Notes: a model not told the origin generated them from the letters alone. Counted from the stretch's first letter, positions 46,053 through 59,808 are shown. The stretch: DNA of 64,000 bases from Gemmatimonadota bacterium (GCA_039588275.1 JBDHAC010000003.1:17707-81706); one strand, 5' to 3'. Numbers and translations are program-made.

Positions 46053-47134
46053 CCGAAGCGGCCGCGGACGAACGATCCGTACCAGCGGCTCCCCCTTCCC
46101 ACCCGGTCTCGGCTCCAGATGTCTCGCGCTCCGAGACCCCGCCTGCGAAGGCACCGCAGGTGACCGCGGCCTCCTCGCCGGCCCCCAGGGTCTCGATCGT
46201 GATCCCGGCGTTCAACGAAGCCGAGAACATGCCCGAGCTCTTCGACGAGCTCGCCGGAACCATCCGTGAGCACGACCTTCACGCCGAGATCATCCTCGTG
46301 GACGATGGTTCGACCGACGGCACGCTGACCGCGGCTCGCCAGGCGACCGAGGCAGCAGACTTGCGGGACGTCACGCTGCTCCAGCACCGGCGCAACCGAG
46401 GCAAGACGGAGGCGCTGATCACGGCCGCACGCGAGGCACGGGGCGAGTATCTGGTGCTGTTCGACGCCGACCTGCAGCATTCGCCGCAGGAGATCCCACG
46501 CTTCGTCGAGCGCCTGGACTCGGGCGTGGATGTCGTCGCCGGTCGTAAGGTAGGACCGTACGAAAAGCGACTCGTATCGGGCCTCTACAATTGGCTCGCG
46601 CGGAAGATCTTCCGAGTCCCGGCTCGAGACCTGAACGCCATGAAGGCGTTTCGCGCCGAGGTCCTGGATCGCATCCACCTACGCCATGATTGGCACCGGT
46701 ATCTCGTGATCCTGGCGCATGCCGAAGGATACGAGATCGGGGAGATGGACATCCGGCTATACCCGCGCCGACACGGGGAGCCCAAGTACTCCGGCCGTCG
46801 GCGAATCCTCGTGGGAATCCTGGACCTGCTGGCCGTGTGGTTCCAGCTCGTGTTCAGTCGCAAGCCCATGCTGTTCTTCGGCGTGACCGGACTGGGGCTG
46901 TTGGTGGCGGGCGGGATCACGGGCGCGGTAGCGCTTGTCCTCCGCTTTGCCTTCCAGCTCGGCTTTCGACCCCTGCTCACGCTGGTCCTGCTGCTCGTGA
47001 TGTCCGGGCTAGTTCTTTTCGTGCTGGGCTTCCTGGCGGAGTTGATCGCGGGGCTGCGGGGGGAGATCGAGGAGCTAAGACGAGAGCGTCGTGAGGGGCG
47101 CTGGCGGGTGGGGACCGGCGACCGCCAGGACTGA
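46049..47134 (+). CDS. GT2 polyprenol-phosphate sugar synthase (GtrB/ArnC/Dpm1-like) with C-terminal TM helices
   Basis: VSIVIPAFNEAENM...LVDDGSTDGT motifs. Confidence 0.75.
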   Translation: MTEAAADERSVPAAPPSHPVSAPDVSRSETPPAKAPQVTAASSPAPRVSIVIPAFNEAENMPELFDELAGTIREHDLHAEIILVDDGSTDGTLTAARQATEAADLRDVTLLQHRRNRGKTEALITAAREARGEYLVLFDADLQHSPQEIPRFVERLDSGVDVVAGRKVGPYEKRLVSGLYNWLARKIFRVPARDLNAMKAFRAEVLDRIHLRHDWHRYLVILAHAEGYEIGEMDIRLYPRRHGEPKYSGRRRILVGILDLLAVWFQLVFSRKPMLFFGVTGLGLLVAGGITGAVALVLRFAFQLGFRPLLTLVLLLVMSGLVLFVLGFLAELIAGLRGEIEELRRERREGRWRVGTGDRQD

Positions 47135-48676
47135 GTGAGCGACGATCCGAAGGCGGACCCGGGGAGTTCCCGCCGCTCGCGCTTCGGGTGGACGGCGGCG
47201 GGTCTCGCCACCCTGCACGCGGTGGTCGGGTTGCTCCTCTTCGAGCCCACGCTCTTTCCGGGCGGCGACAACGCAGGCTATCTGATCCTCGGCGATTCAC
47301 TGAGAACGGGTAGCGGATACCGAGACCTCTACCTGCCAGGGTCCCCGCTCCACGCCAGGTATCCCCCGCTGCTGCCGTCGCTTCTAGCGCTCCTCGGCAC
47401 GCTCGGCGGCACCCATCTCGCCAAGATCGCCATGCTAGCCTGCACGTCGCTCGCGGTCTGGGTCACGGCGATCCTGGGCCGCCGACTCGTTGGAGATGGC
47501 CCCGCTCTATTCGCAGCGGCGCTACTGGCCATCAACCCGACGTTGCTCGAGTACGGGCACTACATCCTGTCCGAGGCCCCCTTCGTGTTGCTGGTCGTAC
47601 TGGCGTTGTGGGCGTCGCAGCGCGACGACCGTCAGGGGGCGGTACTGGCCACCGTCGCTGCGGTCGGTGCGTTCGCCACGCGTACGGCGGGACTTACCGT
47701 GCTACTGGCGCTCCCGCTGAGCTGGGTGGCCCGAAAGTCCTGGCGTCGCGCCGCCTGGGGAGGCATCGTGGCGATCTCCACGCTCGCGATCTGGGGACTC
47801 TACCAGCGCTGGGCCGCGCCGGAGCAGCCGGGCTACTTACAGGAACTCGTGCTCATCGACCCCTACACCCCCGAGGCGGGCTCGGTGGGCCTTACCGGAC
47901 TTGCCTTGCGCGCGGCGGAGAACCTCTGGGCGTACGCGAGCCGCGTCATCCCGCAGACTGCGATCGGCACGGAAGGAGCGGCCACACCTCTGGTCGCGAT
48001 CTTCGGGCTCACGCTGGCGGGGCTCGCGCTCGCTGGCTGGGCGATGCGCACCCGCAAGCCGCTGGACCCCCCGGAGATCTTCGTACTGCTCTATGTGGGG
48101 CTGATCGCGATCTGGCCTCAGGTCTGGACCGATCGGCGTTTCCTGCTCCCGCTCCTTCCGATGCTCACGCTGTTGGCCCTCGGCTTCGTCGCCAGCCGGG
48201 GCGACCGCGCGCGGCGCTGGGCGCCGGCCTTACTGGCGTGCGCAATCGCGCTCCCCTGTCTCGTGTGGGTTGTCAAACGGGTGCCCGCGCGCGTTGAATG
48301 CGTCGCGATGTATCGTGCGGGCCAACCGTGCGATATTCCGGCGTTCGCCAGCCTATACGAAGCCGCCCGCTGGGCCCGTGACAGCACGCCCCCCGATGCA
48401 ATCATCGCCAACCGGAAGCCGCGGCTGTTTTACTGGTACTCCCGCCGGCAGGGTGACCTGTACCCGTTCTCGACCGACGAAGATATCGTGCTCGGCGGGC
48501 TCGAGCGCATGGGTGCGGACTTCGTTGTCGTCGACCAGGTGAGTGGCACCACGGGACGTTATCTGGTCCCGGCCATCCAGGCCCGGCAGCACCGTTTCGA
48601 GCCTGTATACCAGGGAGGGTCCCCACCGACCTTCGTGTTTCGGATGCTGCCGTCGTCTCCCGTGGCCGTAAAATGA
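47135..48676 (+). CDS. polytopic membrane protein, putative GT-C fold glycosyltransferase (ArnT/PMT-like)
   Basis: About 11 TM helices. First periplasmic loop with an acidic/aromatic motif. Stop-start coupled to the upstream GT2 gene. Confidence 0.4.
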   Translation: MSDDPKADPGSSRRSRFGWTAAGLATLHAVVGLLLFEPTLFPGGDNAGYLILGDSLRTGSGYRDLYLPGSPLHARYPPLLPSLLALLGTLGGTHLAKIAMLACTSLAVWVTAILGRRLVGDGPALFAAALLAINPTLLEYGHYILSEAPFVLLVVLALWASQRDDRQGAVLATVAAVGAFATRTAGLTVLLALPLSWVARKSWRRAAWGGIVAISTLAIWGLYQRWAAPEQPGYLQELVLIDPYTPEAGSVGLTGLALRAAENLWAYASRVIPQTAIGTEGAATPLVAIFGLTLAGLALAGWAMRTRKPLDPPEIFVLLYVGLIAIWPQVWTDRRFLLPLLPMLTLLALGFVASRGDRARRWAPALLACAIALPCLVWVVKRVPARVECVAMYRAGQPCDIPAFASLYEAARWARDSTPPDAIIANRKPRLFYWYSRRQGDLYPFSTDEDIVLGGLERMGADFVVVDQVSGTTGRYLVPAIQARQHRFEPVYQGGSPPTFVFRMLPSSPVAVK

Positions 48677-49920
48677 GAGCTCTCCACATCGTGACAGCGT
48701 TTCCTCGCCACGAGGATGACGTGATCACGCCCTGGCTCGGGAACGTATTGCTCGGTCTTCGAGACGCGGGAGTGGACGCAGAGGTGCTCGCGCCGGCGTA
48801 CCGGGGGGGCGGAGCGCGCGAATGGCGTGGGATTACCGTTCGACGGTTTCGATACGCTCCCGCCGCCCTCGAGACGCTGACCCACGACGAAACTACCCCG
48901 GACCGACTGAAGCACCGTCCGTGGTACGTCGGCCTTCTGCCTGGTTACGTTGTGGGAGGAGCCATGGCGGCCTACCGCGCGGGCCAGACGGTACCGGACG
49001 TCATCCACGTCCATTGGCCGGTCCCGCACGGACTGTTCGGAGCGATCGGTCAAGTGGCGTCGGGCGGCCGATCGGCGCTCGTCGCAAGCTACTACTCGGT
49101 GGAGCTCAAGTGGATCGAGCGACGGCTCCCTAGCCTCGTCCCCTTCTTGCGTTGGACGATCGACTGTGCCGACGAAGTGACCGCGATCTCGACAGCGACG
49201 GCCCGGGAAGTCCGTCGGCACGTGGAGCGTCCGGTCCGGGTCATCCCGTTCGCGACCGGACTCTCGGGGGAGGTCGTCGATATCGGGCGGGGAGCGCGCC
49301 CTGCGGAGCAAGCGCCCGAGATCCTGTTTGTGGGTCGACTGGTGGAGCGAAAAGGCGTCGAGGTGCTGGTTCGCGCGCTGGCCCGTTTGCGCGAGCGGCG
49401 GGACGTGCGGGTTACGATCGTCGGAGAGGGGACCTGGGAGCCGCGGATTCGCGCGGCTGTAAGCGCCGCCGGGGTGGAGGACGCCGTGACCTTCACCGGG
49501 CGCGTCGATGAGTCGGCACTCGTCGAGGCCTATGGACGCGCGAGTGTGTTCGCGCTTCCCGCCGTGGAGGACGTGAAGGGAGACACCGAAGGACTCGGCG
49601 TCGTTCTGCTCGAGGCAATACGGCTTGGGGTGCCGGTCGTCGCTTCCTCTGCGGGCGGCATACCCGATATCGTGGTCGACGGCGAAACGGGGTGGCTCGT
49701 ACCGCCGCGTGATGACCGAGCGCTCGCCCGCGCGTTGCAGGAGGTTATCGATGATCCGGAGGAGGCGCGTCGACGTGTGGCGCGCGGCCGCGAACGGGTG
49801 GAACGGCGGTTTTCGCCCGAGGGGGTCGTGGCCTCGCTCGTCGAGTGCTACGAAGCCGCCATCACTCGGCGCCGAGGGTTCCAGACCGGTGGCGATCAAA
49901 GTGCGCCGACGGCGTCCTAA
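48673..49920 (+). CDS. GT4 family glycosyltransferase (GT-B fold)
   Basis: EGLGVVLLEAIRLGVPVVASSAGGIPDIV motif. Confidence 0.75.
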   Translation: MRALHIVTAFPRHEDDVITPWLGNVLLGLRDAGVDAEVLAPAYRGGGAREWRGITVRRFRYAPAALETLTHDETTPDRLKHRPWYVGLLPGYVVGGAMAAYRAGQTVPDVIHVHWPVPHGLFGAIGQVASGGRSALVASYYSVELKWIERRLPSLVPFLRWTIDCADEVTAISTATAREVRRHVERPVRVIPFATGLSGEVVDIGRGARPAEQAPEILFVGRLVERKGVEVLVRALARLRERRDVRVTIVGEGTWEPRIRAAVSAAGVEDAVTFTGRVDESALVEAYGRASVFALPAVEDVKGDTEGLGVVLLEAIRLGVPVVASSAGGIPDIVVDGETGWLVPPRDDRALARALQEVIDDPEEARRRVARGRERVERRFSPEGVVASLVECYEAAITRRRGFQTGGDQSAPTAS

Positions 49921-49939
49921 CCCGGGGAGTCATTGATCC

Positions 49940-50848
49940 ATGGTCAAGCTCGCGGTCGTCCGATGGTACCTCAACGCGCTGTACCTGCGTGCGCTCCGGC
50001 TGCGAGACCGCTGGCTGCGTCCCCGCGCCTTGAACGCCATCGACGCCAACCTGGCGAGCTCGCTGTTCACGGAGTACGAGTCGATCGCGGAGGAGCTCTC
50101 GCACGTGGAGCGGCTGCAAAACCGCGAGTTCAAGGTCTTCTCGCAGAATGGGGAAGATGGCCTGCTTGCCTACATCTTCTCCGAGATCGGCACGACGAAT
50201 CGGCGGTTCGTAGAATTCGGAGTCGAGGACGGACGGGAGTGCAATTGCGCCAATCTCGCGATCCACTTCGGCTGGAGCGGCCTGATGCTCGAGGCCAACC
50301 CGGCCGATGTGCACCGGGCCCGGGTCTTCTACGGCAGGCTGCGAGGGGAGGATGGCCCGAGGGTGGCCGTGGAGGAGTGCCTCGTGACGATCGAGAACAT
50401 CAACGAAGCGATCGCGGCGGGCCGGGTGACGGGTGAGATAGACCTGCTCTCCATCGACATCGACGGGAACGACTACTGGATCTGGGAGGCGATCGATGTC
50501 GTCAGCGCGAGAGTGGTGGTCATCGAATACAACGCGTCCTTCGGCAGACGCTCCATCAGCATCGCGTACGATCCGGGGTTCGTTCGCTTCAAGGCGCACC
50601 GCAGCGGCTGGTACCACGGCGCGTCGCTCGCAGCCTTGACGAAGCTCAGCGACCGTAAGGGATACGACCTGATCGGCACGGACAGCTTTGGCGTGAATGC
50701 TTTCTTCGTTCGGCGGGATGTGCCGAAGGGGAGACTGGAGGCATTGGAGGCGGACGAGGCGTACCGACCGCAGCGCAAGCGTATGAAGGTCGCGACGCTG
50801 GAGCAGCAGTTCGCGGCGATCGAGCACTTGGCCTACGTTGACGTCTAG
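49940..50848 (+). CDS. FkbM-family methyltransferase-like protein
   Basis: FVEFGVEDG...LEANP and IDLLSIDIDGNDYWIWEAI blocks resemble FkbM domain motifs. Confidence 0.4.
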   Translation: MVKLAVVRWYLNALYLRALRLRDRWLRPRALNAIDANLASSLFTEYESIAEELSHVERLQNREFKVFSQNGEDGLLAYIFSEIGTTNRRFVEFGVEDGRECNCANLAIHFGWSGLMLEANPADVHRARVFYGRLRGEDGPRVAVEECLVTIENINEAIAAGRVTGEIDLLSIDIDGNDYWIWEAIDVVSARVVVIEYNASFGRRSISIAYDPGFVRFKAHRSGWYHGASLAALTKLSDRKGYDLIGTDSFGVNAFFVRRDVPKGRLEALEADEAYRPQRKRMKVATLEQQFAAIEHLAYVDV

Positions 50849-50869
50849 GCGACACGATCGCCGTGTCCG

Positions 50870-53293
50870 GTGACAGATGAAGGAGACGTCGATCGAAATG
50901 CTCACGTGGGTGAGTCGGGGGAGGTGAAGGGGGGGGCACGCGGGCACGGGAAGGCCATCCTGTGGGTGTTCCTGGGTGGCGCCGCCCTGGCGAGCGTGTG
51001 GTTCTACCGCGAGTTCGTCTTCTTCGCGGAGCGGCTCATCTATGGCTCGGACATGCTGTTCGAGGGGATTTCCCTTCGGCGGTTCTACGTAGATGAGATC
51101 CGAGCCGGTCGCGGTGTTCCGCTGTGGATCCCGCACGTATACGGCGGAATGCCCTTCGTCGCGCTGCTTCCCGGACCGATCTTCTACCCGACGACTCTCC
51201 TGTACCTCCTCATGCCGCTCCATCGAGCCATTGGCTGGACCTTCGTCCTGCACACGTTCCTGAGCGGCGCCTTCGCGTATTTCATGGCCCGATCCTTCCG
51301 CCTGCGGCCGAGCTCGGCGGTAGTCTGCGGCGTCTCGTTCATGTTCACCGGGTACGTCACGTCACACCTGTTCGGAGGGCATGACGGACGGATGTTCGCC
51401 ATGACCCTGATCCCCCTGGCCATCGGCTCGCTCCAGCGAGGACTCGATACCGGCGAAGCGCACTGGTTCGGAGCGCTCGCCCTCGTCGTGGCAATGCAGA
51501 TCTTCACGCCGCACATGCAAGTGATGTATTTTTCATGTCTTGCACTGTCCCTATTCCTCCTGTTCCATCTCCTGGTCCGGGTACCTCGCGCTCCGGAGGG
51601 GGGGCGGAGGGGGGCGTACGCGCGACCGCTGGCCGGCTTCGCACTCGCATTGCTGGCGGCGATCGCGATCGGTGGGTTACAGCTGTTTCCGACGCTGGCA
51701 CTCCTTGACGACGCGACGCGCGCCGCGACCGAGCGGGGGTACGAGTTCGCCGCCTCTTACGCGTTGCCTCCCCAGGAGCTTACGGCACTCTTTCTCCCGG
51801 ACCTGGTCAGCTCGCTGCCGGGGCGGTACTGGGGCCAGAACCCACTCAAGCTCCACACGGAGTATCTGGGTGCGGTGCCGTTGGCGCTGGCGCTCTTCGC
51901 CATTGCGTCAGCATTTCGCCCCGGACTGAGCCGCGAGCACCGCCGCGTCATTGGCTTCCTGGTGGTGGCGAGTCTCCTGGGGGTCCTCTTCGCACTCGGG
52001 GCGGCGACGCCCGTCCACCGACTCGCGTACGTCGTATTGCCTATGATCCGGAGCCTGCGGGCGCCGGCGATGATGCTCGGGCCGGTCTCGGTCTTCATCG
52101 CGCTATTGGCGGGCTTCGGGTGGGAGGCCGCGGCGGCGCGGCGGGAGACTCCAGGGGATGAGGGCCCGTCGGTGTCGTGGGTCGCCCTCGCCCTCCTCGC
52201 GGGTCCCGTCTTGCTGCTCGGCGTTGTGGCGGCCGTCAATCCGCGCGGACTGCTTCGCTTCGTCCTCCTCGAGTGGTATCCGACCGGGTGGCCGCGCGAA
52301 CCTGACCCGGCGCTCGTGCCGGCCCTGCGCGCCAACGGAATGCTGCTCCTGGGAGGGTTTGGCCTTGCCTGGGGAGTCGCCCTCGCGGTGTCCCGTCGTA
52401 AGGTCAGCGAGCTGGCGCTCGTGCTCGTCGTCCTGTTTGCCGTCGCGGACCTGTGGCGGGTCGATTCACGGTACCTGGAGGTGCGCGACGCCGGGGAGCT
52501 CGAAGCCGATTCCGTTCTCACGGCGCTCACGAGTGAGACCAGCCCCGGGGAACGAGTGTGGGCGCCCGCCCTCGCCGGCTCAGTGCCCAACTATCGACCG
52601 AACCGCCTCATCTACCACGGCGTCTCGTCGGCGACGGGTCGTCAGAAGTTCCTTCTTCGCCCTTTCGCGAGGCTCGTGGGAGGCATCCAGCCGGACGAGG
52701 GACTGCTCCGGTATCCTGCGCTTCTCGGACTACTCGACGTTCGGTACCTGATCACGCCGGGGGTCCAGAATGGCCTCGACCTCGTCGCGGAGGCGGGCGG
52801 CCGCTACCTGTATCGCCTTCCGGACCCACCCCACGCCTTCTTTCCGGTGGACATCGCCGTGGTCGACGATACGGCGGAGGCCCTCGCGCGCACCCGCTCG
52901 AACCCGGACCCCATGACCCTCACAGTCGTAGAGGCCAGCTCGGGTAGGGAGCCGCCGGCGCCGGGGCGTGGACGCGCGTCGATCGTGGGTTACGAGCCCG
53001 ATAGGATCGAACTCGGTGCGGAGGTCGAGCTCCCCGGACTGCTGGCGGTGAGCGAGATCTTCCACCCGGGCTGGCGCGCGTACGTGGACGACGAGGAGGT
53101 CCCGGTATGGCGGGTCAACGTGGCGTTTCGGGGCGTCGAGGTGCCCGCCGGGACGCATCGAATCACCTTCGAGTACGATAGCCGTTCCTACCGCCTGGGG
53201 TTCTGGTTGAGCATGCTGACGATGATCGGGGTCGGTGTCGTGATGTGGCTTTCGTGGCGCAGGTCTCGCCTCGCGTCGAAGAGCGCGATTTGA
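50870..53293 (+). CDS. YfhO-family polytopic membrane protein (GT-C type glycosyltransferase)
   Basis: 807 aa with about 13 TM helices and a C-terminal periplasmic domain. The N-terminal region is typical of YfhO. Confidence 0.6.
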   Translation: MTDEGDVDRNAHVGESGEVKGGARGHGKAILWVFLGGAALASVWFYREFVFFAERLIYGSDMLFEGISLRRFYVDEIRAGRGVPLWIPHVYGGMPFVALLPGPIFYPTTLLYLLMPLHRAIGWTFVLHTFLSGAFAYFMARSFRLRPSSAVVCGVSFMFTGYVTSHLFGGHDGRMFAMTLIPLAIGSLQRGLDTGEAHWFGALALVVAMQIFTPHMQVMYFSCLALSLFLLFHLLVRVPRAPEGGRRGAYARPLAGFALALLAAIAIGGLQLFPTLALLDDATRAATERGYEFAASYALPPQELTALFLPDLVSSLPGRYWGQNPLKLHTEYLGAVPLALALFAIASAFRPGLSREHRRVIGFLVVASLLGVLFALGAATPVHRLAYVVLPMIRSLRAPAMMLGPVSVFIALLAGFGWEAAAARRETPGDEGPSVSWVALALLAGPVLLLGVVAAVNPRGLLRFVLLEWYPTGWPREPDPALVPALRANGMLLLGGFGLAWGVALAVSRRKVSELALVLVVLFAVADLWRVDSRYLEVRDAGELEADSVLTALTSETSPGERVWAPALAGSVPNYRPNRLIYHGVSSATGRQKFLLRPFARLVGGIQPDEGLLRYPALLGLLDVRYLITPGVQNGLDLVAEAGGRYLYRLPDPPHAFFPVDIAVVDDTAEALARTRSNPDPMTLTVVEASSGREPPAPGRGRASIVGYEPDRIELGAEVELPGLLAVSEIFHPGWRAYVDDEEVPVWRVNVAFRGVEVPAGTHRITFEYDSRSYRLGFWLSMLTMIGVGVVMWLSWRRSRLASKSAI

Positions 53294-53330
53294 TCGGACC
53301 AGCGAGGGGGTTTCCACCCATGAAGCGCCG

Positions 53331-54323
53331 GTGACCGAGCTCGGGCACAGCGAGAGGGAGACCGCGGGGTCCCGGCTCCGTGACCGGAGGCGGGTACGGT
53401 TGGCTACGGGGCTCTTCCTCCTGCTCGCGCTGGTCGCCGTAGCGGTTGCCATACGAGGCGAATGGGCCGCGTGGACCACACTCGAGGACGACACGCGCAC
53501 CTATGGGTGGAGAGTGTCCGTTCCATTCCTCGCGGTGGCACTCGGGTGCGGAGTCTCGGCCCTGTTGGCGTCAGGCGCGCTGTGGGCCGCCCTGTTTCGG
53601 TCGGCCGGAGGACGTACCGGATGGCGTGAGGCGATCGCGGCCTGGTTGGGCTCCAACCTCGGAAGGTACCTGCCGGGCAAGTTCTGGCAGCTCGCCAGTC
53701 TCGCGGCGTACGTGCGAGCTCGTGGCGACTCCGGAGCCCGTGCGCTCACGGTGTCCTTGGCCCTTCAGGCCGTGGTCCTCGCAGCGGGCGCAGCCGTCGC
53801 GGTGATCTTTCTTGGCGGCCAAGCGTTTGGCGCCGCGAGCCCCTGGACGATCGCCATCGCGGTCGCGGCCATCGCCTTGGCGCTCAACCCGGCGGTACTT
53901 CGGCGGTCTATCGTCTGGGCAGGGTACCTCCTTCGCGAGGAGCCGACCCCCGAGGTGTCGGGACTCGGCTATGGCGTGCTGCTCCGCGCGGCAGCATGTG
54001 CCTTTGTGCTGTGGGGCTTGTATGGAGTGGGCTTCTGGGCCCTATGCAAGGGTCTGGTCGGAGGGAGCCCGGTGTCCGTCTCGATCGCAGCGGCCGTGTT
54101 CGCAGCCGGATACATCGTCGGTTACGTCGTACTCCTCGCGCCCGGGGGCATCGTGGTTCGCGAAGGTGCGATCGCCGGCCTCCTCGGTGCGGTGGCCGGT
54201 GTCCCGCTGGGACCAGCGACGGCGATCGCGCTCGCGGCGCGGCTGTGGACCACCGTGGCCGAGCTTCTCGCGTTCGCGCTCGCCGCTGGTGCCGGGCTGC
54301 GGCGACACTCCGGATCGCGCTAG
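53331..54323 (+). CDS. flippase-like lysylphosphatidylglycerol-synthase-TM (UPF0104) domain membrane protein
   Basis: About 8 TM helices. The family is frequently paired with Dpm1-like GT2 genes. Confidence 0.55.
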   Translation: MTELGHSERETAGSRLRDRRRVRLATGLFLLLALVAVAVAIRGEWAAWTTLEDDTRTYGWRVSVPFLAVALGCGVSALLASGALWAALFRSAGGRTGWREAIAAWLGSNLGRYLPGKFWQLASLAAYVRARGDSGARALTVSLALQAVVLAAGAAVAVIFLGGQAFGAASPWTIAIAVAAIALALNPAVLRRSIVWAGYLLREEPTPEVSGLGYGVLLRAAACAFVLWGLYGVGFWALCKGLVGGSPVSVSIAAAVFAAGYIVGYVVLLAPGGIVVREGAIAGLLGAVAGVPLGPATAIALAARLWTTVAELLAFALAAGAGLRRHSGSR

Positions 54324-54333
54324 CTTCCGGTCC

Positions 54334-55134
54334 ATGGAGGCAGAAGGGGGTGGGCGCGAGAGAGTGCCGGGAACCGACGGAGAACGATCGACCGTGAGCG
54401 GCACGATCCGGGAGAGCGCGGGTCGAGGGCTCGTGATCCTGCCTACGTACGAGGAGGTGGAGAGTCTCGGTCAGATCGTACCGCGCATCCTGGCGCTGGA
54501 TCCCCGCCTCGATATTCTGGTGATCGACGATGCGTCGCCTGACGGCACGGGAGAGCTGGCGGACCGTTTGGCTTCGGAGGAGCCCAGGGTCTCCGTTATG
54601 CACCGCGAGGGGAAACTAGGACTCGGGTCGGCTTACATCGCCGGCTTTCGGACCGGGCTGGAACGCGGGTACGACCTCCTGTTCGAGATGGATGCGGATG
54701 GTTCGCACGACCCTGAGCACCTCGTTCCGATGATCGCGGCGACGGAAGAGTTCGACGTCGTCGTCGGATCGCGCTACCTGCGCGGCGTGAACGTGATCAA
54801 CTGGCCGATGTCCCGTCTGCTGCTCAGCTACTACGCCAACAAATACGCCCGGGTGGTCACGGGCCTGGCTCTGGCGGACCTGACGAGCGGCTTCAAATGC
54901 TTCAAGCGCGAAGTGCTGGAGGCGATCCGCCTCGAGAAGGTCGGCTCCACCGGATACGCGTTTCAGATCGAGATGAACGTTCGAGCCTGGAAGCGGGGTT
55001 TCCGCGTGGGCGAGATCCCGATCGTGTTCGTGGATCGGGAAGCGGGGCAGAGCAAGATGTCGGGGGCCATCGTCCGCGAAGCGATATGGCGGGTGTGGGC
55101 GCTGCGCTTCAAGTCGATGTTCGGGAGGCTATAG
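54334..55134 (+). CDS. GT2 polyprenol-phosphate hexose synthase (Dpm1/Ppm1-like, soluble)
   Basis: VILPTYEEVESL...VIDDASPDGT...DADGSHDP motifs. ATG at 54334 lies inside the longer ORF. Confidence 0.75.
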   Translation: MEAEGGGRERVPGTDGERSTVSGTIRESAGRGLVILPTYEEVESLGQIVPRILALDPRLDILVIDDASPDGTGELADRLASEEPRVSVMHREGKLGLGSAYIAGFRTGLERGYDLLFEMDADGSHDPEHLVPMIAATEEFDVVVGSRYLRGVNVINWPMSRLLLSYYANKYARVVTGLALADLTSGFKCFKREVLEAIRLEKVGSTGYAFQIEMNVRAWKRGFRVGEIPIVFVDREAGQSKMSGAIVREAIWRVWALRFKSMFGRL

Positions 55135-55141
55135 GAGGCCG

Positions 55142-56074
55142 GTGAAGGAGCTCGCTGACGTTCTGCATCCGGCCCGGCGGAGGGTCCGGCCGGCGATCGA
55201 CTACAAGAGCCATCCGGTGTTCGCCACGCGGCCGGAATGGCGATGCGAGGTGCACCGGATCATCTTCGGGCACCTGACGCCGGGCGGGAAGCTGTTCGAC
55301 ATCATCCTGATCGCGGTGATCCTGGTCAGCGTCGCCGTCGTAATGATCGAGAGCGTCGCATCCGTGCGACTGCGACACGGCACTGCCCTGAGGACCGCAG
55401 AGTGGGTGTTCACCCTGCTGTTCACGCTCGAGTACGCGATGCGTCTCGTTGCGGCGGAGAACGCGGGCCGATACGCGCGCAGCCCCCTGGGGTTGATCGA
55501 CTTCCTCGCGGTCCTGCCCACCTACGTGAGCCTCCTCATCCCTGGAGGGCAGGCGTTCACCGTGATTCGGATCCTGCGCGTGATGCGCGTGTTTCGCGTG
55601 CTCAAGCTCGCGCAGTTCGTCGGGGGCGAGCAGCTGCTCATCCGGGCCCTGCGCGCGAGCTCATACAAGATCGTCGTGTTTCTCATCGCGGTGCTGACCG
55701 TCGTCGTGATCATGGGGTCGATCATGTACTTCATCGAGGGGCCCGAACACGGCTTCACGAGCATCCCGGTTGGCGTGTACTGGGCGATAGTGACGCTCAC
55801 CACGGTGGGTTTCGGAGACATCACCCCACAAACGCCGATTGGTCAGGTTCTGGCGGCGATGCTCATGATCCTCGGTTACGCCGTCATCGCCGTGCCCACG
55901 GGCATCGTGACCGTCGAGATGGCAGCCGCCGGGCAGCGTCGCATACTCCCCCGCGACAAGCCGGGAAAAGCGCGGCAATCGGGCCAGCGGCGCGTGTGCC
56001 TCGGGTGCGGCGCCGAGGGGCACGATGAGGACGCCACCCACTGCAAGTTCTGCGGGGTCCATCTGCCGACATGA
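55142..56074 (+). CDS. voltage-gated K+ channel (6TM, S4 sensor) with C-terminal zinc ribbon
   Basis: S4 segment IRILRVMRVFRVLKL. Pore TLTTVGFGD. C-terminal CLGCG...CKFCG. Confidence 0.75.
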   Translation: MKELADVLHPARRRVRPAIDYKSHPVFATRPEWRCEVHRIIFGHLTPGGKLFDIILIAVILVSVAVVMIESVASVRLRHGTALRTAEWVFTLLFTLEYAMRLVAAENAGRYARSPLGLIDFLAVLPTYVSLLIPGGQAFTVIRILRVMRVFRVLKLAQFVGGEQLLIRALRASSYKIVVFLIAVLTVVVIMGSIMYFIEGPEHGFTSIPVGVYWAIVTLTTVGFGDITPQTPIGQVLAAMLMILGYAVIAVPTGIVTVEMAAAGQRRILPRDKPGKARQSGQRRVCLGCGAEGHDEDATHCKFCGVHLPT

Positions 56075-56115
56075 GGCGGATCCCGAAGGAGCACGCCGCC
56101 GCCGAGCCGCGGCCC

Positions 56116-56159
56116 GGTGCACGTGTGAGAAGCGCCCGGGCGCGGCATCGACGTGCACC
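56116..56159 (+). other. nested GC-rich hairpin: outer 9-bp stem ggtgcacgt/acgtgcacc enclosing the 12-bp palindrome gcgcccgggcgc
   Basis: Read directly in the channel-antiporter intergenic region. Confidence 0.6.
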
Positions 56160-56180
56160 CAGGAGCCGTAGGGAGACAAG

Positions 56181-57896
56181 GTGAGCGGCGAGCCGATCTT
56201 TCTCTTCCTGATCCAGGTGGTCGTCGTCCTCAGCCTCGCCAGATTGTTGGGGGAGGTGTTCCGGTGGTTCAGGCAGCCGCCCCTGGCGGGCGAGATCCTC
56301 GCCGGCGTCCTTCTCGGGCAGACCGTGCTCGGCCACCTCGCGCCCGATCTGTTCGTGGCGCTGTTTCCGCCGGACGAGCTACAGGAAGCGATGTTCGGCG
56401 TGACCGCCGAGATCGGGATCCTCTTCCTCCTGCTCGTCGTGGGTCTCGAGGTCAACGTGGCCTCGGCCTGGAAGATGCGGAACCAGACGTTCACGGTCGC
56501 CGTCACTGGCGTACTGGTGCCGTTGGCGCTCGGGACCGCGGTCGCCTGGCTCCTCTACGACCAATGGGTCGAGGTCCCGACGCCTCGCCTGGCGTTCGCC
56601 CTCCTCGTCGGAGCAGGTGTCGCGATCACGGCGATAACCGTGGTCGCACGGCTCCTCTTCGACCTCAAGATCATGAAGTCCGACCTCGGGCTCTTCCTCA
56701 TCTCGGCGATGGCGCTCAACGAGCTGCTCGGGTGGGCGGTTCTCGCGGTGGTGCTCGGTCTCGTTGGAGCGGGAGCCGCGGGAGAGGGGATGGATGGCCA
56801 CGGACTCGCGTGGACCATGGTCGGGGTCGTGCTCTTCGCCGCGTTCGCTCTCACCGTGGGCCGCTGGCTCGCCACACGGGCGCTTCTGTGGATGGATCGG
56901 GCGGAGCTACCCAGCCCAGCCGCCCCGCTCTCGTTGGTCGTTTGCTTCGGTCTCATAGGTGGCATCGTGACGGGCGCGCTCGGGATTCACCCCGTCTTCG
57001 GATTCCTGATCGCCGGGATCATGGCCAGCGACCCCAGAGCTCTTTCCGAGCATACGCGCGCGATCATCGAACAGATGGTGGAGGCCATCTTCGTGCCGCT
57101 CTTCTTCGCGGGGATCTGCCTGCGGATCGATTTCGTGAGCGATTTCGACACCGTCACCGTGTTGTCGGTGACCGCGCTCTCCATCGTGGGCAAGTTTGTG
57201 GGAGCGGGTTTGGGAACGCTCATGGTTCGGATGCCCGCGGCGGACCGGCTCCCGGTCGCGATTGCCCATATCCCTGGCGGTCCGATGGGTGTGCTCCTCG
57301 CCAGCGTGGCGCTGGAAGCCGGGGTGATCGGGCCCCAGATGTTCGTCGCCCTGGTGATCGCCTCGATCGTCTCCGCACTTCTGGTGGGGCCCGCGTTCAC
57401 CCGGCAACTCCGGCAGGCCGAGACCCAGGACGTGTCGGCCTACATTGCGAAGGATCGCGTCGTGAGGCTGAGGGCGGCCTCGCGCGACGAGGCGATCGAG
57501 ACGCTCGCGGGCGTGGCCGCCGGGGCGCCCGGAGCGCCGGGATCGGACGTGATCCGCCGCGCCGTCGCGGCACGTGAAGCGACGATGGGAACGGGAGTGG
57601 GGAAGGGGATCGCGATCCCGCACGCGCGCATCCCGAACCTGAAGACGCCGATCATAGCGATCGGGATCTGCAGGGAGGGCATCGAGTGGGACGAGGTCGA
57701 CGGGAAGCCCGCGCACCTCATCTTCCTCGTGTTGACCTCGAGCAGGGACGAACGCGACACGCAGCTGAGGATTCTGGCCCAGATCGCGCGGTGCTTCTCC
57801 GATCCCCAACGGATGCGCGACGTGGTCGACGCCGTCGACACGGAAGGTGTGTGGGGGTGTCTGCAGGCCTCGCTGCAACCGGCGGCGCTAGGCTGA
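56181..57896 (+). CDS. CPA2 cation/proton antiporter fused to C-terminal PTS EIIA type-2 (PtsN-like) domain
   Basis: Na+/H+ exchanger TM domain (about 400 aa), followed by ...GTGVGKGIAIPHARIP... (EIIA-Ntr active-site His motif). Confidence 0.75.
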   Translation: MSGEPIFLFLIQVVVVLSLARLLGEVFRWFRQPPLAGEILAGVLLGQTVLGHLAPDLFVALFPPDELQEAMFGVTAEIGILFLLLVVGLEVNVASAWKMRNQTFTVAVTGVLVPLALGTAVAWLLYDQWVEVPTPRLAFALLVGAGVAITAITVVARLLFDLKIMKSDLGLFLISAMALNELLGWAVLAVVLGLVGAGAAGEGMDGHGLAWTMVGVVLFAAFALTVGRWLATRALLWMDRAELPSPAAPLSLVVCFGLIGGIVTGALGIHPVFGFLIAGIMASDPRALSEHTRAIIEQMVEAIFVPLFFAGICLRIDFVSDFDTVTVLSVTALSIVGKFVGAGLGTLMVRMPAADRLPVAIAHIPGGPMGVLLASVALEAGVIGPQMFVALVIASIVSALLVGPAFTRQLRQAETQDVSAYIAKDRVVRLRAASRDEAIETLAGVAAGAPGAPGSDVIRRAVAAREATMGTGVGKGIAIPHARIPNLKTPIIAIGICREGIEWDEVDGKPAHLIFLVLTSSRDERDTQLRILAQIARCFSDPQRMRDVVDAVDTEGVWGCLQASLQPAALG

Positions 57897-57953: not shown

Positions 57954-58739
57954 CTAACATTTCCCGGCCTTTCCGGCATTGTAGATCGCCCGGACCTCAG
58001 CACCCGTGAGCGCTCGGCCCCAGTAGCCGACCTCATCAACAAGACCGTTGAACTCGAAGTCGCTCGCCGGCGGGCCGAGGCTCTCGTCACGTCGTCCGAT
58101 TCCGAGCCAGGTGTCAGCCACGCGGATCGAGGTGGCGACCAGGGAGCCCGCTTCCGCACCGTTCACATAAAACCGCACCGTGAAGCCGTCCCACGTGAGC
58201 GCGAGGTGCGTCCACACGTCGATGCTCGCCGGGGCTGCGATTACGGCCGCCTGGTTGTTGTCGGCTTGGCGGATAAAACCGCGCCACACAGAACCGTTGT
58301 GGTCAATGACGTACGCCTCGGCATAGGCGGCCCCCTTGCCGACGACGGCTCCGTTGTTTGGCTGGAAGAAGTCGTGCAGCTTGGCCCAGGCATCGACCGT
58401 GAACCCCGGTGGTCCCGATGGGTTGAGATCGGGAGTGTCATCGACCCGGGCCATCGACCCGGACGACCCGTCGAAGCTGAAGGCCTGTCCCCCACGCGAG
58501 GTGACGTAGCCTGAGCTGAAGCCCGCGTTGCCGACCATCACGGCATCGCTATGGCCTACGAGGTCGTGTCCACTACCGTCGCCCGTCCACCAATGAAGGA
58601 GGCCGCTCGGAGGCGCCACGCAGTCAGTTGTTGATGTGGTCGTGATCGGGAGCGGGAGAAAGTCAGAGCAGGCGTCGAGAGCGAGGATGCAAGCGTCGAA
58701 CAAGAGCACGCCCAGCGCGAGAACCGTTAACCGCCGCAT
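57954..58739 (-). CDS. secreted LamG/concanavalin-A-like lectin domain protein
   Basis: Signal peptide. Laminin-G-like motifs (LVDEVGYWGRALTGAEV). Confidence 0.55.
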   Translation of the reverse strand: MRRLTVLALGVLLFDACILALDACSDFLPLPITTTSTTDCVAPPSGLLHWWTGDGSGHDLVGHSDAVMVGNAGFSSGYVTSRGGQAFSFDGSSGSMARVDDTPDLNPSGPPGFTVDAWAKLHDFFQPNNGAVVGKGAAYAEAYVIDHNGSVWRGFIRQADNNQAAVIAAPASIDVWTHLALTWDGFTVRFYVNGAEAGSLVATSIRVADTWLGIGRRDESLGPPASDFEFNGLVDEVGYWGRALTGAEVRAIYNAGKAGKC

Positions 58740-59109: not shown

Positions 59110-59808
59110 CTAGCTGCCAGAGTCCGTGAGCCGTCCGCGCAACTCGCCGAGTCGGATCCTGTACAGCCCTGCCTCGGACGGATCGTCGGCCTCCTCCGCG
59201 ATTCTCGCGTAGATGGCCACCGCCTCCTCCAGTCGCCCGAGGTCCGTGAGGATCCGCGCGGCATTTGCCGAAGCCTGCCGGCGCTGGAACGGATATCGGG
59301 CCGAGGATCCTATGTCCTGCGAGAGCTGAAGCGCTCGTTCGGGCTCTCCATTCTGTTCGTACGCGTTCGTGAGCAGCGTGCGCGCCCCGTAGCCGAGCGG
59401 AACATCGACCGGGAGGCCCACGGCCTCGAGGACGCGTATGGCGTCCTGTGAGCGGCCCCCATCGATGTAGAGCCGCGCCAGAACCAGCCGAGCCTCCGCT
59501 TCGGAGGGCGTGCCACCGAAGCGCTCGATGAACGCTTCGAGCTGGGATGTCAGCGCCGCGGGCTCCGTCCCGCCCGCCATCGCCCGGATCTGGCTCAGCT
59601 CGGCGGCTGCCCGCTCGCGCACCGTCGCCACGTACCCGCGATAGTACGTGATTCCGCCGGCCAGAAGCGCGGCCGCCCCGGTGATCAGGATCGCGCTGCG
59701 CAGGTTGTTCTTAAGCCATCGCCACAAACGCAACGTGCCGGCGACGAACGCGTCTTCCTGGGACTGTGTCGCGTCGGGCTTGCGACCGTGCGCCAACCGT
59801 TCGGGCAT
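59110..59808 (-). CDS. membrane-anchored tetratricopeptide repeat protein
   Basis: N-terminal TM helix, followed by TPR-like helical repeats. Confidence 0.55.
   Translation of the reverse strand: MPERLAHGRKPDATQSQEDAFVAGTLRLWRWLKNNLRSAILITGAAALLAGGITYYRGYVATVRERAAAELSQIRAMAGGTEPAALTSQLEAFIERFGGTPSEAEARLVLARLYIDGGRSQDAIRVLEAVGLPVDVPLGYGARTLLTNAYEQNGEPERALQLSQDIGSSARYPFQRRQASANAARILTDLGRLEEAVAIYARIAEEADDPSEAGLYRIRLGELRGRLTDSGS

Follow-up and report, generated by a model that had tools for sequence, protein, structure and literature searches.

What does a YfhO-family protein do in a Gram-negative bacterium that also carries Kdo and Lpt genes? The question is raised by a stretch of 64,000 nucleotides (66% GC), referred to here as the window, from a Gemmatimonadota bacterium (GCA_039588275.1). 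The original prediction had read three of its genes, coding for YfhO, a flippase-like UPF0104 protein and a GT2 glycosyltransferase, as a CsbB/GtcA/YfhO-like module with a periplasmic acceptor different from that of Firmicutes.

Organization of the gene cluster

The three genes were found on the plus strand where they had been placed (50870-55134; Table 1), and the predicted parts list of an intact YfhO, a UPF0104 protein and a GT2 was correct. The 440-aa GT2b ORF starting at 53812 was rejected as over-extended, with 54334 as the real start: it overlaps the UPF0104 gene in another frame, and the GT2 domain starts only at ORF residue 208. The three frames show GC3 values of 0.78-0.81, typical of coding sequence. 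The identical database protein of YfhO (P0001) has 789 aa, and its start would correspond to an internal GTG near 50924.

Table 1. Features of the cluster and of its upstream flank, in window coordinates
Feature	Position	Strand	Length	Description
Kdo/Lpt genes	35551-46052			KdsB, KdsA, KdsC, KdsD, LptC, LptB, RpoN
rpoN	44583-46052	+		Sigma-54; Pfam Sigma54_AID, Sigma54_CBD, Sigma54_DBD
GT2a	46049-47134	+		Membrane-anchored ArnC/GtrB/PgfS-type GT2; Glycos_transf_2 E = 5.1e-30
GT-C1	47135-48676	+		Polytopic membrane protein, weakly PMT_2/ArnT-like
GT4	48673-49920	+		Cytoplasmic GT-B glycosyltransferase; Glycos_transf_1 E = 8.8e-43
Methyltransferase	49940-50848	+	302 aa	Methyltransf_21 18.3 bits, below gathering score 22.7
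YfhO	50870-53293	+	807 aa	Open frame with GTG start
UPF0104	53331-54323	+	330 aa	UPF0104/PplT protein
GT2b	54334-55134	+	266 aa	Soluble Dpm1-type GT2, from ATG

The adjacency of the proposed three-gene module is real, and the unit is larger: a block of seven genes (46049-55134) that adds GT4, a methyltransferase and one more enzyme each of the lipid-phosphate sugar synthase and GT-C kinds, and that is joined to rpoN. The stop codon of rpoN shares nucleotides with the beginning of the GT2a gene, and from rpoN to GT2b all genes abut or overlap, with intergenic distances between -4 and 37 nt; terminator-like sites are not in excess. The rpoN gene is context and stands outside the pathway proper. 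The Gram-negative background that had been invoked is plainly visible in the Kdo and Lpt genes immediately upstream. The cluster lies in a housekeeping region of uniform GC, syntenic across the phylum, and its database homologues bear the names Gemmatimonadota or Candidatus Palauibacter. All cluster proteins could be assigned to known families; none reached an NCBIfam equivalog cut-off.

YfhO is a full-length family member with a predicted GT-C fold

The Pfam match of the 807-aa protein (PF09586, 44.8 bits versus a gathering score of 28.5) is limited to residues 733-781. Comparison by hhalign of a Gemmatimonadota profile with Firmicutes (Bacillus-type) YfhO gave a probability of 99.75% (E = 3.3e-27) over 655 columns, covering residues 33-776. 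D61, W86, G93, R284 and R562 are conserved across YfhO subfamilies, the polar D61 and R284 being common to Firmicutes YfhO too. About 13 transmembrane (TM) helices, a periplasmic domain at approximately 538-770 and a last TM helix (772-806) make up a topology matching that of Firmicutes YfhO (PMC5836110). The likeness thus extends beyond general TM hydrophobicity, and the AlphaFold model (pLDDT 87.1, pTM 0.90), which the original prediction had proposed as a check, has a GT-C fold. D61, in the first periplasmic loop, is the candidate catalytic Asp. Fusions of YfhO are known, either to a methyltransferase (P0066) or to a PMT_2-type GT-C (proteins of about 1,230 aa).

The view of YfhO as a rarity outside Firmicutes was overstated. 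A profile search yielded 72,539 cluster representatives, homologues in Gemmatimonadota, Armatimonadota, Bacteroidota and one alphaproteobacterium are publicly named "YfhO family protein", and a 2026 preprint deals with Bacteroidota YfhO; the family is common and already annotated in diderms, and the novelty of the locus is smaller than claimed. Since the Gemmatimonadota profile scored diderm YfhO at 128-160 bits and Firmicutes YfhO at 22-65 bits, CsbB/GtcA/YfhO is an analogy and not the nearest relative.

The partner proteins

UPF0104 matches LPG_synthase_TM (42.1 bits versus 33.4) over profile positions 5-297 of 302. Its structure model (pLDDT 89.1) was compared with the PDB by Foldseek, and the top three hits were all MprF (9j8q, 7duw and 7f47; probability 1.00, TM 0.50-0.55); the E-values, 0.011-0.12, were modest. 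By sequence and modelled fold, UPF0104 is a member of the family of MprF flippase domains, and it is a candidate lipid translocator of the pathway. The "GtcA-like" label was wrong as to family: this is a flippase candidate of MprF/PplT and not of GtrA type. Glycerophospholipids are the sole demonstrated substrates of the MprF/PplT family, a polyprenyl-phosphate sugar substrate being a prediction from 2015. The close homologues of UPF0104 included no fusion proteins.

GT2b (Glycos_transf_2, E = 2.8e-25) has as its closest solved relative the dolichol-phosphate mannose synthase (DPMS) of Pyrococcus furiosus (5mlz, E = 1.4e-29), and its motifs MDADGSHDP and GSRY match the DPMS motifs DADxQHPP and SRY (PMC12992685). 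No hydrophobic segments were found in GT2b, a soluble Dpm1-type protein predicted to act as a polyprenyl-phosphate hexose synthase. GT2a is likewise predicted to be a polyprenyl-phosphate sugar synthase: its best NCBIfam model is ArnC (104.7 bits, far under the cut-off of 529), its closest solved relative is ArnC 9hwj (E = 2.4e-28, residues 6-299), and it carries C-terminal hydrophobic segments at 252-330.

GT-C1 has about 10 hydrophobic segments, scores 20.9 bits with PMT_2 (gathering score 26.1) and weakly matches an NCBIfam family named "cell surface glycopolymer formation"; sequence search returned no solved relatives. It is a candidate second periplasmic glycosyltransferase. The 302-aa protein carries the motifs VEFGVEDG and IDLLSIDIDGNDYWIW, which we take to resemble FkbM motifs, and it is probably an FkbM-type methyltransferase. 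Its orthologues were found only in three loci (L004, L010 and L078); most related loci have an unrelated class-I SAM methyltransferase in its slot (Methyltransf_11/23/25 in L001-L003).

Conservation of the gene set

Loci with enough flank to be evaluated comprised 59 close and 27 distant ones (YfhO identity 22-47%). Beside YfhO, the close loci contained UPF0104 in 59/59 and GT2b, GT2a and GT4 in 58/59 each, GT2a, GT4, UPF0104 and GT2b occurring together in 57. Among the distant loci, GT4 was present in 18, UPF0104 in 17 and GT2b in 20, and 16 of the 27 kept all four partners. GT-C1 was found in 49 close versus 2 distant loci. Because every close locus has UPF0104 and all but one have a Dpm1-like GT2 beside YfhO, this arrangement is far beyond chance. 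YfhO, UPF0104 and GT2b form the conserved nucleus of a putative operon of seven genes for envelope glycosylation, which occurs across Gemmatimonadota.

Wherever the flank was long enough, almost every related locus has lptB-rpoN immediately upstream of the cluster. Distant relatives (about 30% identity) show the order lptB-rpoN-GT2a-GT4-UPF0104-YfhO-GT2b, lptB-rpoN being kept in most; UPF0104 is upstream of YfhO there and downstream in the close clade. The lpt/rpoN linkage is missing in lower-GC loci. Locus L087 (50% GC contig, 29% YfhO identity) also has the submodule GT4-x-YfhO-UPF0104-GT2 with an adjoining Bac_transf priming enzyme, and in L088 and L089 the YfhO family occurs in other contexts, alone or within a Wzx-type polysaccharide cluster.

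Proposed pathway and alternative readings

The analysis shows the family and fold of each protein, the topology, the conserved gene set and its link to lptB-rpoN. We favour, with some reservation, a multi-component transmembrane glycosylation pathway of the GT-A/flippase/GT-C kind in the core genome of this bacterium, for which we infer each enzymatic step, the sugar, the flippase cargo and the acceptor as follows. At the cytoplasmic face, soluble GT2b would use a nucleotide sugar to charge polyprenyl phosphate with a monosaccharide, and membrane-anchored GT2a would separately catalyse the same reaction. The MprF-like UPF0104 would move the lipid-phosphate sugar to the periplasmic leaflet, and may also tether GT2b to the membrane, in the manner of the AglD fusion of archaea. 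YfhO would then transfer the sugar to a periplasmic acceptor, probably via D61, and the PMT_2-like GT-C would do likewise in many genomes. GT4 and the methyltransferase may act cytoplasmically, with either the sugar or the precursor of the acceptor as substrate.

Teichoic acid is discounted as acceptor, and the earlier expectation of a different one was reasonable for an organism with Kdo and Lpt genes. LPS, protein or glycolipid are each possible; lipid A-core or another lipid-linked envelope glycan would come first, followed by periplasmic or outer-membrane proteins and then by a glycerolipid-anchored glycan. The linkage to kdsD-kdsC-lptC-lptB-rpoN across deep branches of the phylum and the ArnC models and structures matched by GT2a give a hint of LPS; the proximity of lpt and rpoN may reflect history and not function.

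The family assignments of the parts, gene coupling, conservation in close and distant loci, the fusions described above and the CsbB/GtcA/YfhO and AglD precedents count for the pathway. The glycerophospholipid cargo shown for MprF/PplT, the modest Foldseek E-values of UPF0104, the 6 of 27 distant loci with neither UPF0104 nor a Dpm1-like GT2 near YfhO, the other settings of YfhO in L088 and L089, the lower-GC loci without the lpt/rpoN linkage, the missed NCBIfam equivalog cut-offs, and the diphosphate-linked oligosaccharide donor predicted for the nearest named relatives (Bacteroidota core YfhO) count against it.

An alternative that we regard as unlikely places a lipoglycan or glycolipid at the centre: at the cytoplasmic face GT4 would attach sugar to a glycerolipid, either diacylglycerol or the head group of a phospholipid, UPF0104 would flip this glycolipid instead of the donor, and YfhO and GT-C1 would elongate it on the periplasmic side, using the sugars that GT2a and GT2b load onto polyprenyl phosphate. 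Actinobacterial lipomannan, with PimA/PimB, Ppm1 and GT-C enzymes, would be the analogous case. Glycerolipids are the cargoes shown or proposed for the flippase family (Lys-PG and Ala-PG for MprF), pairings of this kind are predicted for gpgSDF of P. aeruginosa (GT4, deacetylase and UPF0104) and hexSDF of C. difficile, GT4 adjoins UPF0104 in the order GT4-UPF0104-YfhO of most distant loci, and the target of Firmicutes YfhO, LTA, is itself a glycolipid-anchored polymer (PMC5836110). The solved structures hit by GT4 include PimB' (83 bits) and PimA (62 bits), but these hits are generic, standing alongside BshA and MshA, and GT4 passed no NCBIfam equivalog cut-off, scoring 62 bits with the GlcNAc-PG synthase model (cut-off 480). 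Moreover, the cluster has no deacetylase, no dedicated translocator would be left for the polyprenyl-phosphate sugars, and no report of a Gemmatimonadota lipoglycan was found in the literature.

General protein O-glycosylation, with YfhO as an oligosaccharyltransferase or protein glycosyltransferase acting on periplasmic and outer-membrane proteins, seems to us quite improbable. Its models are the Bacteroidota core YfhO and the YfhO-like PgfM1/PgfM2 of Streptococcus mutans. A Gemmatimonadota-only profile scored 145-147 bits with the YfhO encoded beside ahcY in Bacteroides finegoldii and Parabacteroides distasonis, against 22-65 for YfhO of Bacillus, Priestia and Staphylococcus. The Bacteroidota gene, which is phylum-wide and is reported as predicted to be essential for many species of Bacteroidales, has been put forward as the missing O-OTase (bioRxiv 10.64898/2026.07.27.740950). 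That role is a prediction, however, and in the three loci inspected these genes do not have UPF0104 and Dpm1-type neighbours. The only NCBIfam matches of our YfhO are PgfM1 (residues 105-304) and PgfM2 (729-788), but they are weak and miss the equivalog cut-offs widely (22 and 17 bits versus 1400 and 1500). The priming enzyme in L087 would fit this reading, whereas two monophosphate-type sugar synthases beside YfhO suggest single-sugar donors and not en bloc transfer.

Assembly of an exopolysaccharide or capsule, or its decoration with side chains, is very unlikely. YfhO genes do occur in polysaccharide clusters of other diderms: an Armatimonadota homologue lies amid Wzx-type flippases, an epimerase and a GT4, and a Pontiella EPS cluster is drawn with yfhO, an undecaprenyl-phosphate mannosyltransferase gene and gtrA (PMC7356697); YfhO is also mentioned in a paper on Lactobacillus johnsonii glucan EPS. 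The cluster studied here, however, contains no Wzx, Wzy, Wza or ABC exporter genes, and its housekeeping setting, uniform GC and phylum-wide synteny are unlike typical variable EPS islands. Finally, incidental adjacency of YfhO, UPF0104 and GT2b, to which solitary distant YfhO genes and the six distant loci lacking both partners might be referred, is hardly credible, as UPF0104 and GT2b are both kept in 58/59 close and 16/27 distant loci and the association outlasts the change in gene order and persists down to about 29% YfhO identity.

Comparison with known systems

The favoured transmembrane pathway shares its logic of GT-A synthase, flippase and YfhO GT-C with CsbB/GtcA/YfhO of B. subtilis, S. 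aureus and L. monocytogenes, which adds GlcNAc to lipoteichoic or wall teichoic acid (PMC8035078, PMC5836110); a Priestia plasmid carries the canonical GT2-GtrA-YfhO operon. Firmicutes YfhO is a full-length homologue of the same build, with numerous TM helices, then a large outside domain and one closing TM helix. The relationship in sequence is remote, though, and our YfhO has an outside domain shorter by about 150 residues. The flippase is GtrA in Firmicutes (where YfhO-GtrA fusions are even known) and MprF/UPF0104-type here, CsbB is membrane-anchored and the synthase adjoining our YfhO is soluble and Dpm1-type, and a teichoic acid is discounted as the acceptor here.

Bacteroidota core YfhO, located beside sahH/ahcY or mtnN-luxS, is among the nearest named relatives (128-147 bits, almost end to end). 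It likewise belongs to the core genome of diderms, is conserved across its phylum and shares a Pmt4-like N-terminal fold signal with the Gemmatimonadota protein. It differs in that neither UPF0104 nor a Dpm1-type gene adjoins it in the three loci examined, and as the predicted missing protein O-oligosaccharyltransferase it is proposed to use a diphosphate-linked oligosaccharide (bioRxiv 10.64898/2026.07.27.740950).

The ArnC/ArnT (plus ArnE/F) system for lipid A-core modification resembles the locus in GT2a, in the weakly ArnT-like GT-C1 and in the adjoining Kdo and Lpt genes, but GT2a scores far under the ArnC cut-off and the cluster has neither arnA, arnB and arnD for Ara4N synthesis nor an ArnE/F-type flippase. 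In the Pgf system of Streptococcus mutans (PgfS, PgfM1, PgfM2 and PgfE), a GtrB-type GT2 similarly has two YfhO-like GT-C proteins as partners; its host, however, is a monoderm, the scores are far under cut-off and the Gemmatimonadota cluster has no epimerase. The gpgSDF operon of P. aeruginosa (PMC12713373) likewise combines a GT4 with a UPF0104 predicted flippase, whereas our cluster has no deacetylase, does not match the GlcNAc-PG synthase model and contains two lipid-phosphate sugar synthases and GT-C enzymes. The same three families meet in archaea, where AglD joins a GT2 and a UPF0104 domain in one protein and where UPF0104, an AglD-like GT2 and a PMT/STT3-like GT-C form a conserved neighbourhood (PMC5898192). 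By analogy, the locus can be viewed as AglD in split form, followed by its GT-C, here in a bacterium, as separate genes, with a YfhO-type GT-C and presumably with undecaprenyl instead of dolichyl phosphate as carrier.

Organization of the YfhO Gene Cluster

The original prediction had placed an intact 807-aa YfhO beside a UPF0104 protein and a GT2 glycosyltransferase at 50870-55134, and all three genes were found there, on the coding strand of the region (window GC, 66%). This three-gene module is real, but the unit is larger than predicted, with four further genes located between rpoN and yfhO, and from rpoN onward the ends of neighboring genes abut or overlap. A public protein identical to the window YfhO (P0001) is 789 aa long, a length that would correspond to a start at an internal GTG near 50924. 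The GT2b frame was listed as 440 aa from 53812, overlapping the UPF0104 gene in a different frame, with its GT2 domain beginning at residue 208; the ATG at 54334 gives a GT2b of 266 aa.

Positions of the genes of the YfhO cluster and of flanking genes described in the text
Gene	Position	Strand	Product	Basis
GT2a	46049-47134	+	ArnC/GtrB-type GT2 with C-terminal TM segments	family models, solved relative, hydropathy
GT-C1	47135-48676	+	polytopic, weakly PMT_2-like	Pfam
GT4	48673-49920	+	GT4 glycosyltransferase	Pfam
302-aa protein	49940-50848	+	probable FkbM-like methyltransferase	sub-threshold Pfam match and motifs
YfhO	50870-53293	+	807 aa, intact open frame	Pfam
UPF0104	53331-54323	+	330 aa	Pfam LPG_synthase_TM
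GT2b	54334-55134	+	Dpm1-type GT2, 266 aa	Pfam Glycos_transf_2
Phosphomutase	20003-21517	+	phosphoglucomutase/phosphomannomutase
LptA-position protein	41418-43622 (approximate; listed as ORF 41040-43622)	+	large protein between LptC and LptB
Ion channel	55142-56074	+	voltage-gated type	Ion_trans, E = 8.4e-38
Exchanger-EIIA	56181-57896	+	Na+/H+ exchanger fused to PTS_EIIA_2 domain of PtsN type
Laminin_G_3 protein	57954-58739	-	concanavalin-like
TPR_21 protein	59110-59808	-
PF04018 protein	60519-61508	-	329 aa, VCA0040-like/DUF368, "undecaprenyl phosphate translocase-like"	PF04018, E = 2.8e-63

The expected Kdo and Lpt background was borne out: the segment 35551-46052 is occupied by the genes for KdsB, PyrG, KdsA, KdsC, KdsD, LptC, a large unassigned protein, LptB, and RpoN, and farther upstream in the window lie those for NuoLMN, SucCD, PlsX, FabG, and FabF. 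Homologs of the 807-aa protein carry the names Gemmatimonadota or Candidatus Palauibacter. The idea of a mobile or variable island was dropped in view of the uniform GC, the housekeeping flanks, and the phylum-wide synteny. Promoter and terminator scans returned sites at chance level.

Several flanking genes were also inspected. The large protein in the LptA position gave no above-threshold Pfam match (LptD_N/LptA at 15.4 bits, E = 0.022), and its counterparts in three related loci (L001-L003; 455-664 aa) were likewise devoid of Pfam matches. The ion channel gene starts 7 nt past GT2b and is retained after it in approximately 23 of the closer loci. The exchanger-EIIA gene lies a few genes after rpoN; in enterobacteria, ptsN is also located a few genes after rpoN. 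Close orthologs of the exchanger-EIIA protein (69-94% identity) were found in only six related loci, and some unrelated YfhO loci contained only a free-standing EIIA-like gene. The TPR_21 gene, convergent with the cluster, is a conserved neighbor in most close loci, and the Laminin_G_3 gene lies between it and the exchanger. The PF04018 gene is also convergent, begins some 5.4 kb beyond the cluster, and occupies an equivalent relative place in L017-L021; in 11 other loci (L003, L026, L028, L031, L033, L037, L038, L040, L042, L044, and L072) this slot is taken by a gene with a DedA/VTT domain, DedA being the second family that has been linked to the recycling of undecaprenyl phosphate. Either neighbor could serve in recycling of the carrier lipid after periplasmic GT-C reactions. 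The phosphomutase gene, 25 kb upstream and unlinked to the cluster, could be a source of hexose-1-phosphate for nucleotide sugars.

The 807-aa Protein Is a YfhO-Family GT-C Enzyme

In Pfam, the 807-aa protein matched PF09586 with 44.8 bits (gathering threshold, 28.5), over residues 733-781 only, corresponding to profile positions 787-835 of 835, and all 49 members of its clade scored above the threshold. Since this match spans just 49 residues, it is insufficient alone to decide YfhO membership. An alignment of Gemmatimonadota YfhO sequences was therefore compared by hhalign with one of Firmicutes YfhO, built from homologs of the Priestia protein and having an 861-aa Bacillus YfhO as its first sequence. 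Both aligned over 655 columns (33-776 versus 27-867; probability 99.75%, E = 3.3e-27). Against the single Priestia YfhO, which is encoded in a GT2-GtrA-YfhO operon on a Priestia megaterium plasmid and itself matches Pfam positions 4-835 with 460 bits, only the C-terminal 98 columns aligned, so that the Firmicutes alignment was needed for the full span. At E <= 0.001, a profile of the 49-member clade retrieved 72,539 cluster representatives, with the matches listed running mostly end to end. Three intermediate homologs (P0150, P0200, and P0250) aligned end to end with the clade profile and also matched the Pfam YfhO model at positions 25-604 and at its C-terminus.

The AlphaFold model of YfhO (pLDDT 87.1, pTM 0.90) contains approximately 13 TM helices, with a mixed alpha/beta domain (538-770), assigned to the periplasm, ahead of the last helix (772-806). 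The orientation with both termini inside fits the model, in which the loops assigned to the cytoplasm hold basic residues. Bacillus subtilis YfhO has 13 TM helices and a 389-aa loop ahead of the last one (PMC5836110); the layout of the window protein is alike, although its outside domain is approximately 150 residues shorter. The window YfhO has D61, W86, G93, R284, R562, W735, and G761 in common with the YfhO proteins of Bacteroidota, Microvirga, Priestia, and Bacillus, D61 being aligned to a nearly invariant D39 and R284 to an invariant R254 of the Firmicutes alignment. D61 (in a GSDM motif) is located in the first extracytoplasmic loop, just past TM1 (23-45); it does not vary within the clade of 49 and is conserved to at least 90% among 77 diverse relatives, and it is likely to be the catalytic acid. 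A PDB fold search revealed structural similarity between the membrane domain and solved GT-C enzymes, while PDB sequence searches with YfhO, UPF0104, GT-C1, and the 302-aa protein returned nothing useful. The profile alignment, the shared polar residues, and the topology thus extend the resemblance to YfhO beyond general TM hydrophobicity, and these results indicated that the 807-aa protein is a YfhO-family GT-C enzyme. Transfer from a polyprenyl-phosphate sugar by B. subtilis YfhO has been inferred rather than shown in vitro (PMC5836110).

The Window YfhO Belongs With the Diderm Branch by Profile Comparison

A profile made from Gemmatimonadota sequences only was scored against named YfhO proteins. 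The highest scores were those of the alphaproteobacterium Microvirga (160 bits), Parabacteroides distasonis (147 bits), Bacteroides finegoldii (145 bits), and Bernardetia (128 bits), followed by Priestia (65 bits), Bacillus (34 bits), and Staphylococcus (22 bits). By these scores, the window YfhO is distant from the Firmicutes proteins that have been studied and belongs to a diderm YfhO branch. Cut-offs of the PgfM1 and PgfM2 equivalogs (NF047589 and NF047590) were missed by far (22.0 bits versus 1400 and 16.8 versus 1500), which makes the protein a relative of the Pgf proteins and not an ortholog. In both P. distasonis and B. finegoldii, yfhO adjoins ahcY, and this placement identifies it as the gene described in a July 2026 preprint, in which Bacteroidota yfhO is conserved across the phylum, predicted to be essential in many Bacteroidales, and a candidate for the missing O-oligosaccharyltransferase (bioRxiv 10.64898/2026.07.27.740950). 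The small GT2 encoded beside P. distasonis YfhO was ruled out as a Dpm1-like enzyme, as BLAST against GT2b gave no match.

It had been stated that YfhO is characterized almost only in Firmicutes. This stands for experimental work, all of which in our literature searches came from Firmicutes; nevertheless, a YfhO is no rarity among Gram-negative genomes, and such proteins have been annotated before. The public annotation "YfhO family protein" exists for homologs from Gemmatimonadota, Armatimonadota, Bacteroidota, and Microvirga, and an EPS cluster of the diderm Pontiella has been drawn with a yfhO gene (PMC7356697).

Six homologs of 1209-1289 aa (P0162, P0174, P0188, P0221, P0225, and P0253) carry an N-terminal domain of approximately 450 aa fused to a full YfhO, that of P0162 matching PMT_2 (E = 2.2e-9). 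These fusions, of approximately 1,230 aa, were not accepted as orthologous evidence, their N-terminal GT-C being weakly like GT-C1 (19 bits in one case).

UPF0104 Is a Candidate Flippase of MprF Type

The second protein of the module had been labeled a GtcA-like flippase, a label that has to be abandoned: it belongs to UPF0104 (PF03706, LPG_synthase_TM; 42.1 bits versus 33.4, residues 28-310 matching profile positions 5-297 of 302), and a scan of the ten ORFs from 44583 to 57896, where inter-gene gaps are at most 145 nt, gave no match to GtrA (PF04138). In this the cluster differs from Firmicutes, in which the Priestia operon includes GtrA and seven YfhO proteins are fused to PF04138. Homologs of the window protein are publicly named UPF0104, YbhN, or lysylphosphatidylglycerol synthase domain proteins. 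Its model (pLDDT 89.1) had MprF as all three best PDB fold matches (probability 1.00; approximately 300 columns; query TM-score, 0.50-0.55), at E-values of only 0.011-0.12. A sequence-only search of the PDB gave no match, and the homolog search returned stand-alone proteins only, mostly close relatives, with no informative fusions.

The name PplT has been given to this family, for which a role as a general lipid translocator of prokaryotes has been put forward (bioRxiv 10.1101/2022.03.11.483950). The cargo shown to date for MprF comprises only aminoacyl-PG and other phospholipids; a polyprenyl-phosphate sugar cargo for the UPF0104 family is a prediction, the C-terminal domain of the archaeal Dpm1-like GT2 AglD belongs to the same family, and in 2015 UPF0104 was noted to share a conserved archaeal neighborhood with an AglD-like GT2 and a PMT/STT3-like GT-C (PMC5898192).

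Glycosyltransferases and Methyltransferases of the Cluster

The best solved relative of GT2b was the Pyrococcus furiosus dolichyl-phosphate mannose synthase DPMS (5mlz; E = 1.4e-29, residues 33-257 versus 26-246), and its MDADGSHDP and GSRY motifs match the donor/metal and lipid-phosphate motifs of DPMS, given as DADxQHPP and SRY (PMC12992685). All equivalog cut-offs (AglJ, PpgS, ArnC, and a halobacterial hexose transferase) were missed, the best score being that for AglJ (64.3 versus 325; PpgS, 54.8 versus 370); as GT2b reached no NCBIfam equivalog cut-off, sugar specificity cannot be assigned. By hydropathy GT2b is soluble, with no 19-residue window reaching a Kyte-Doolittle mean of 1.5 in a simple scan, as opposed to a dedicated predictor; type II Dpm1 and the catalytic domain of Ppm1 likewise have no TM anchor of their own. 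The solved-structure matches of GT4 were too generic to indicate an acceptor.

The 302-aa protein gave a sub-threshold Pfam match and contains motifs resembling those of FkbM; orthologs were found in just three loci (L004, L010, and L078). Elsewhere, the slot before yfhO is filled by an unrelated class-I SAM methyltransferase, which looks like non-orthologous replacement, and in one homolog (P0066) a methyltransferase is fused to YfhO. The varied methyltransferases in this slot, together with the fusion, suggest that methylation belongs to the pathway.

Conservation of the Gene Set

The close set comprised 83 loci with near relatives of the window YfhO, 80 taken from a collection of species-representative genomes and three found by contig look-up, 59 of the 83 with enough flanking sequence. 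All but one of the 83 are labeled Gemmatimonadota or uncultured bacterium, the exception being a contig of 2.7 kb assigned to Akkermansiaceae by binning; the scan used clade-specific patterns and returned almost only Gemmatimonadota, and is thus uninformative on other phyla. UPF0104 was present in all 59 evaluable loci, GT2b, GT2a, and GT4 in 58 each, and GT-C1 in 49.

A distant set of 80 metagenomic loci, with YfhO at 22-47% identity, was retrieved with a pattern from a 13-sequence subset, the full alignment of 77 relatives being too diverse; 27 of these loci were evaluable. Their gene order was mostly lptB-rpoN-GT2a-GT4-UPF0104-YfhO-GT2b, with RpoN at 53-77% identity, and these loci are therefore probably from other Gemmatimonadota. 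All four partners were kept in 16 of the 27, with UPF0104 upstream of YfhO. The trio of YfhO, UPF0104, and GT2b was complete in 58 of 59 close loci and, even with the altered gene order, in 16 of 27 distant ones. Neither UPF0104 nor a Dpm1-like GT2 was present in six of the 27, and in L088 and L089 YfhO occurred alone or within a Wzx-type cluster. Five contigs of lower GC (L087, L093, L095, L111, and L138) contained parts of the set without rpoN. One of them, L087 (50% GC; YfhO at 29% identity), has the order GT4-x-YfhO-UPF0104-GT2, and its next gene (6294-7712, plus strand) encodes a Bac_transf phosphoglycosyl transferase, which may point to a diphosphate-linked glycan there. Overall, the gene set is a phylum-wide context in Gemmatimonadota for an uncharacterized YfhO branch.

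Proposed Pathway and Candidate Acceptors

Families, folds, topology, and gene association are what the data show. They are best explained by a transmembrane glycosylation pathway with multiple components, of the GT-A, flippase, and GT-C kind (systems reviewed in PMC8035078), the chemistry of which we infer throughout. GT2a and GT2b would synthesize polyprenyl-phosphate sugars at the inner side of the membrane; the MprF-like UPF0104 would translocate these sugars, with a possible further role in docking the soluble GT2b; and YfhO, plus the second GT-C where present, would transfer the sugars onto a periplasmic acceptor.

A periplasmic acceptor different from the teichoic acids of Firmicutes had been predicted. 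The acceptor would indeed have to be of another kind, as is reasonable in a genome with Kdo and Lpt genes, and we see three candidates. The first is LPS. It is favored by the joining of the operon to the Kdo/Lpt/rpoN block, seen throughout the phylum, and by ArnC being the closest match of GT2a; against it, the linkage to this block does not extend beyond the phylum. A glycolipid or lipoglycan would agree with the glycerolipids that are the known or proposed cargoes of the UPF0104 family and with the GT4 and UPF0104 operon pairings in gpgSDF and hexSDF (PMC12713373). Protein O-glycosylation would be in line with the closeness to Bacteroidota YfhO and the weak Pgf matches, but two monophosphate-type synthases fit single-sugar donors better than en bloc transfer. 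Literature searches on LPS, glycolipids, and lipoglycans of Gemmatimonadota returned nothing relevant. We regard a broader scheme as rather unlikely. In it, UPF0104 would be a dedicated translocator of polyprenyl-phosphate hexose and would feed a YfhO subfamily specific to diderms, with the core YfhO of Bacteroidota among its members; diderm YfhO proteins would depend on monophosphate sugars to glycosylate LPS or envelope proteins; and the phylum-wide fusion of the operon to lptB-rpoN would be the sign of a core step in how Gemmatimonadota build their outer membrane.

The diderm YfhO branch, much larger than the Firmicutes one, gains from this operon a defined genetic setting, with two lipid-phosphate sugar synthases, a candidate flippase of MprF type replacing GtrA, a GT4, a methyltransferase, and a fixed place after the LPS transport genes. 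The operon bears on the identity of the polyprenyl-phosphate hexose translocator, an activity for which, to our knowledge, neither archaea nor eukaryotes have a confirmed protein. It also bears on whether the related Bacteroidota YfhO is the missing O-oligosaccharyltransferase, since the partner genes favor, for some members of the YfhO subfamily at least, donors with a single monophosphate-linked sugar. Its practical value is modest pending identification of the acceptor. The components of the operon all belong to known families.
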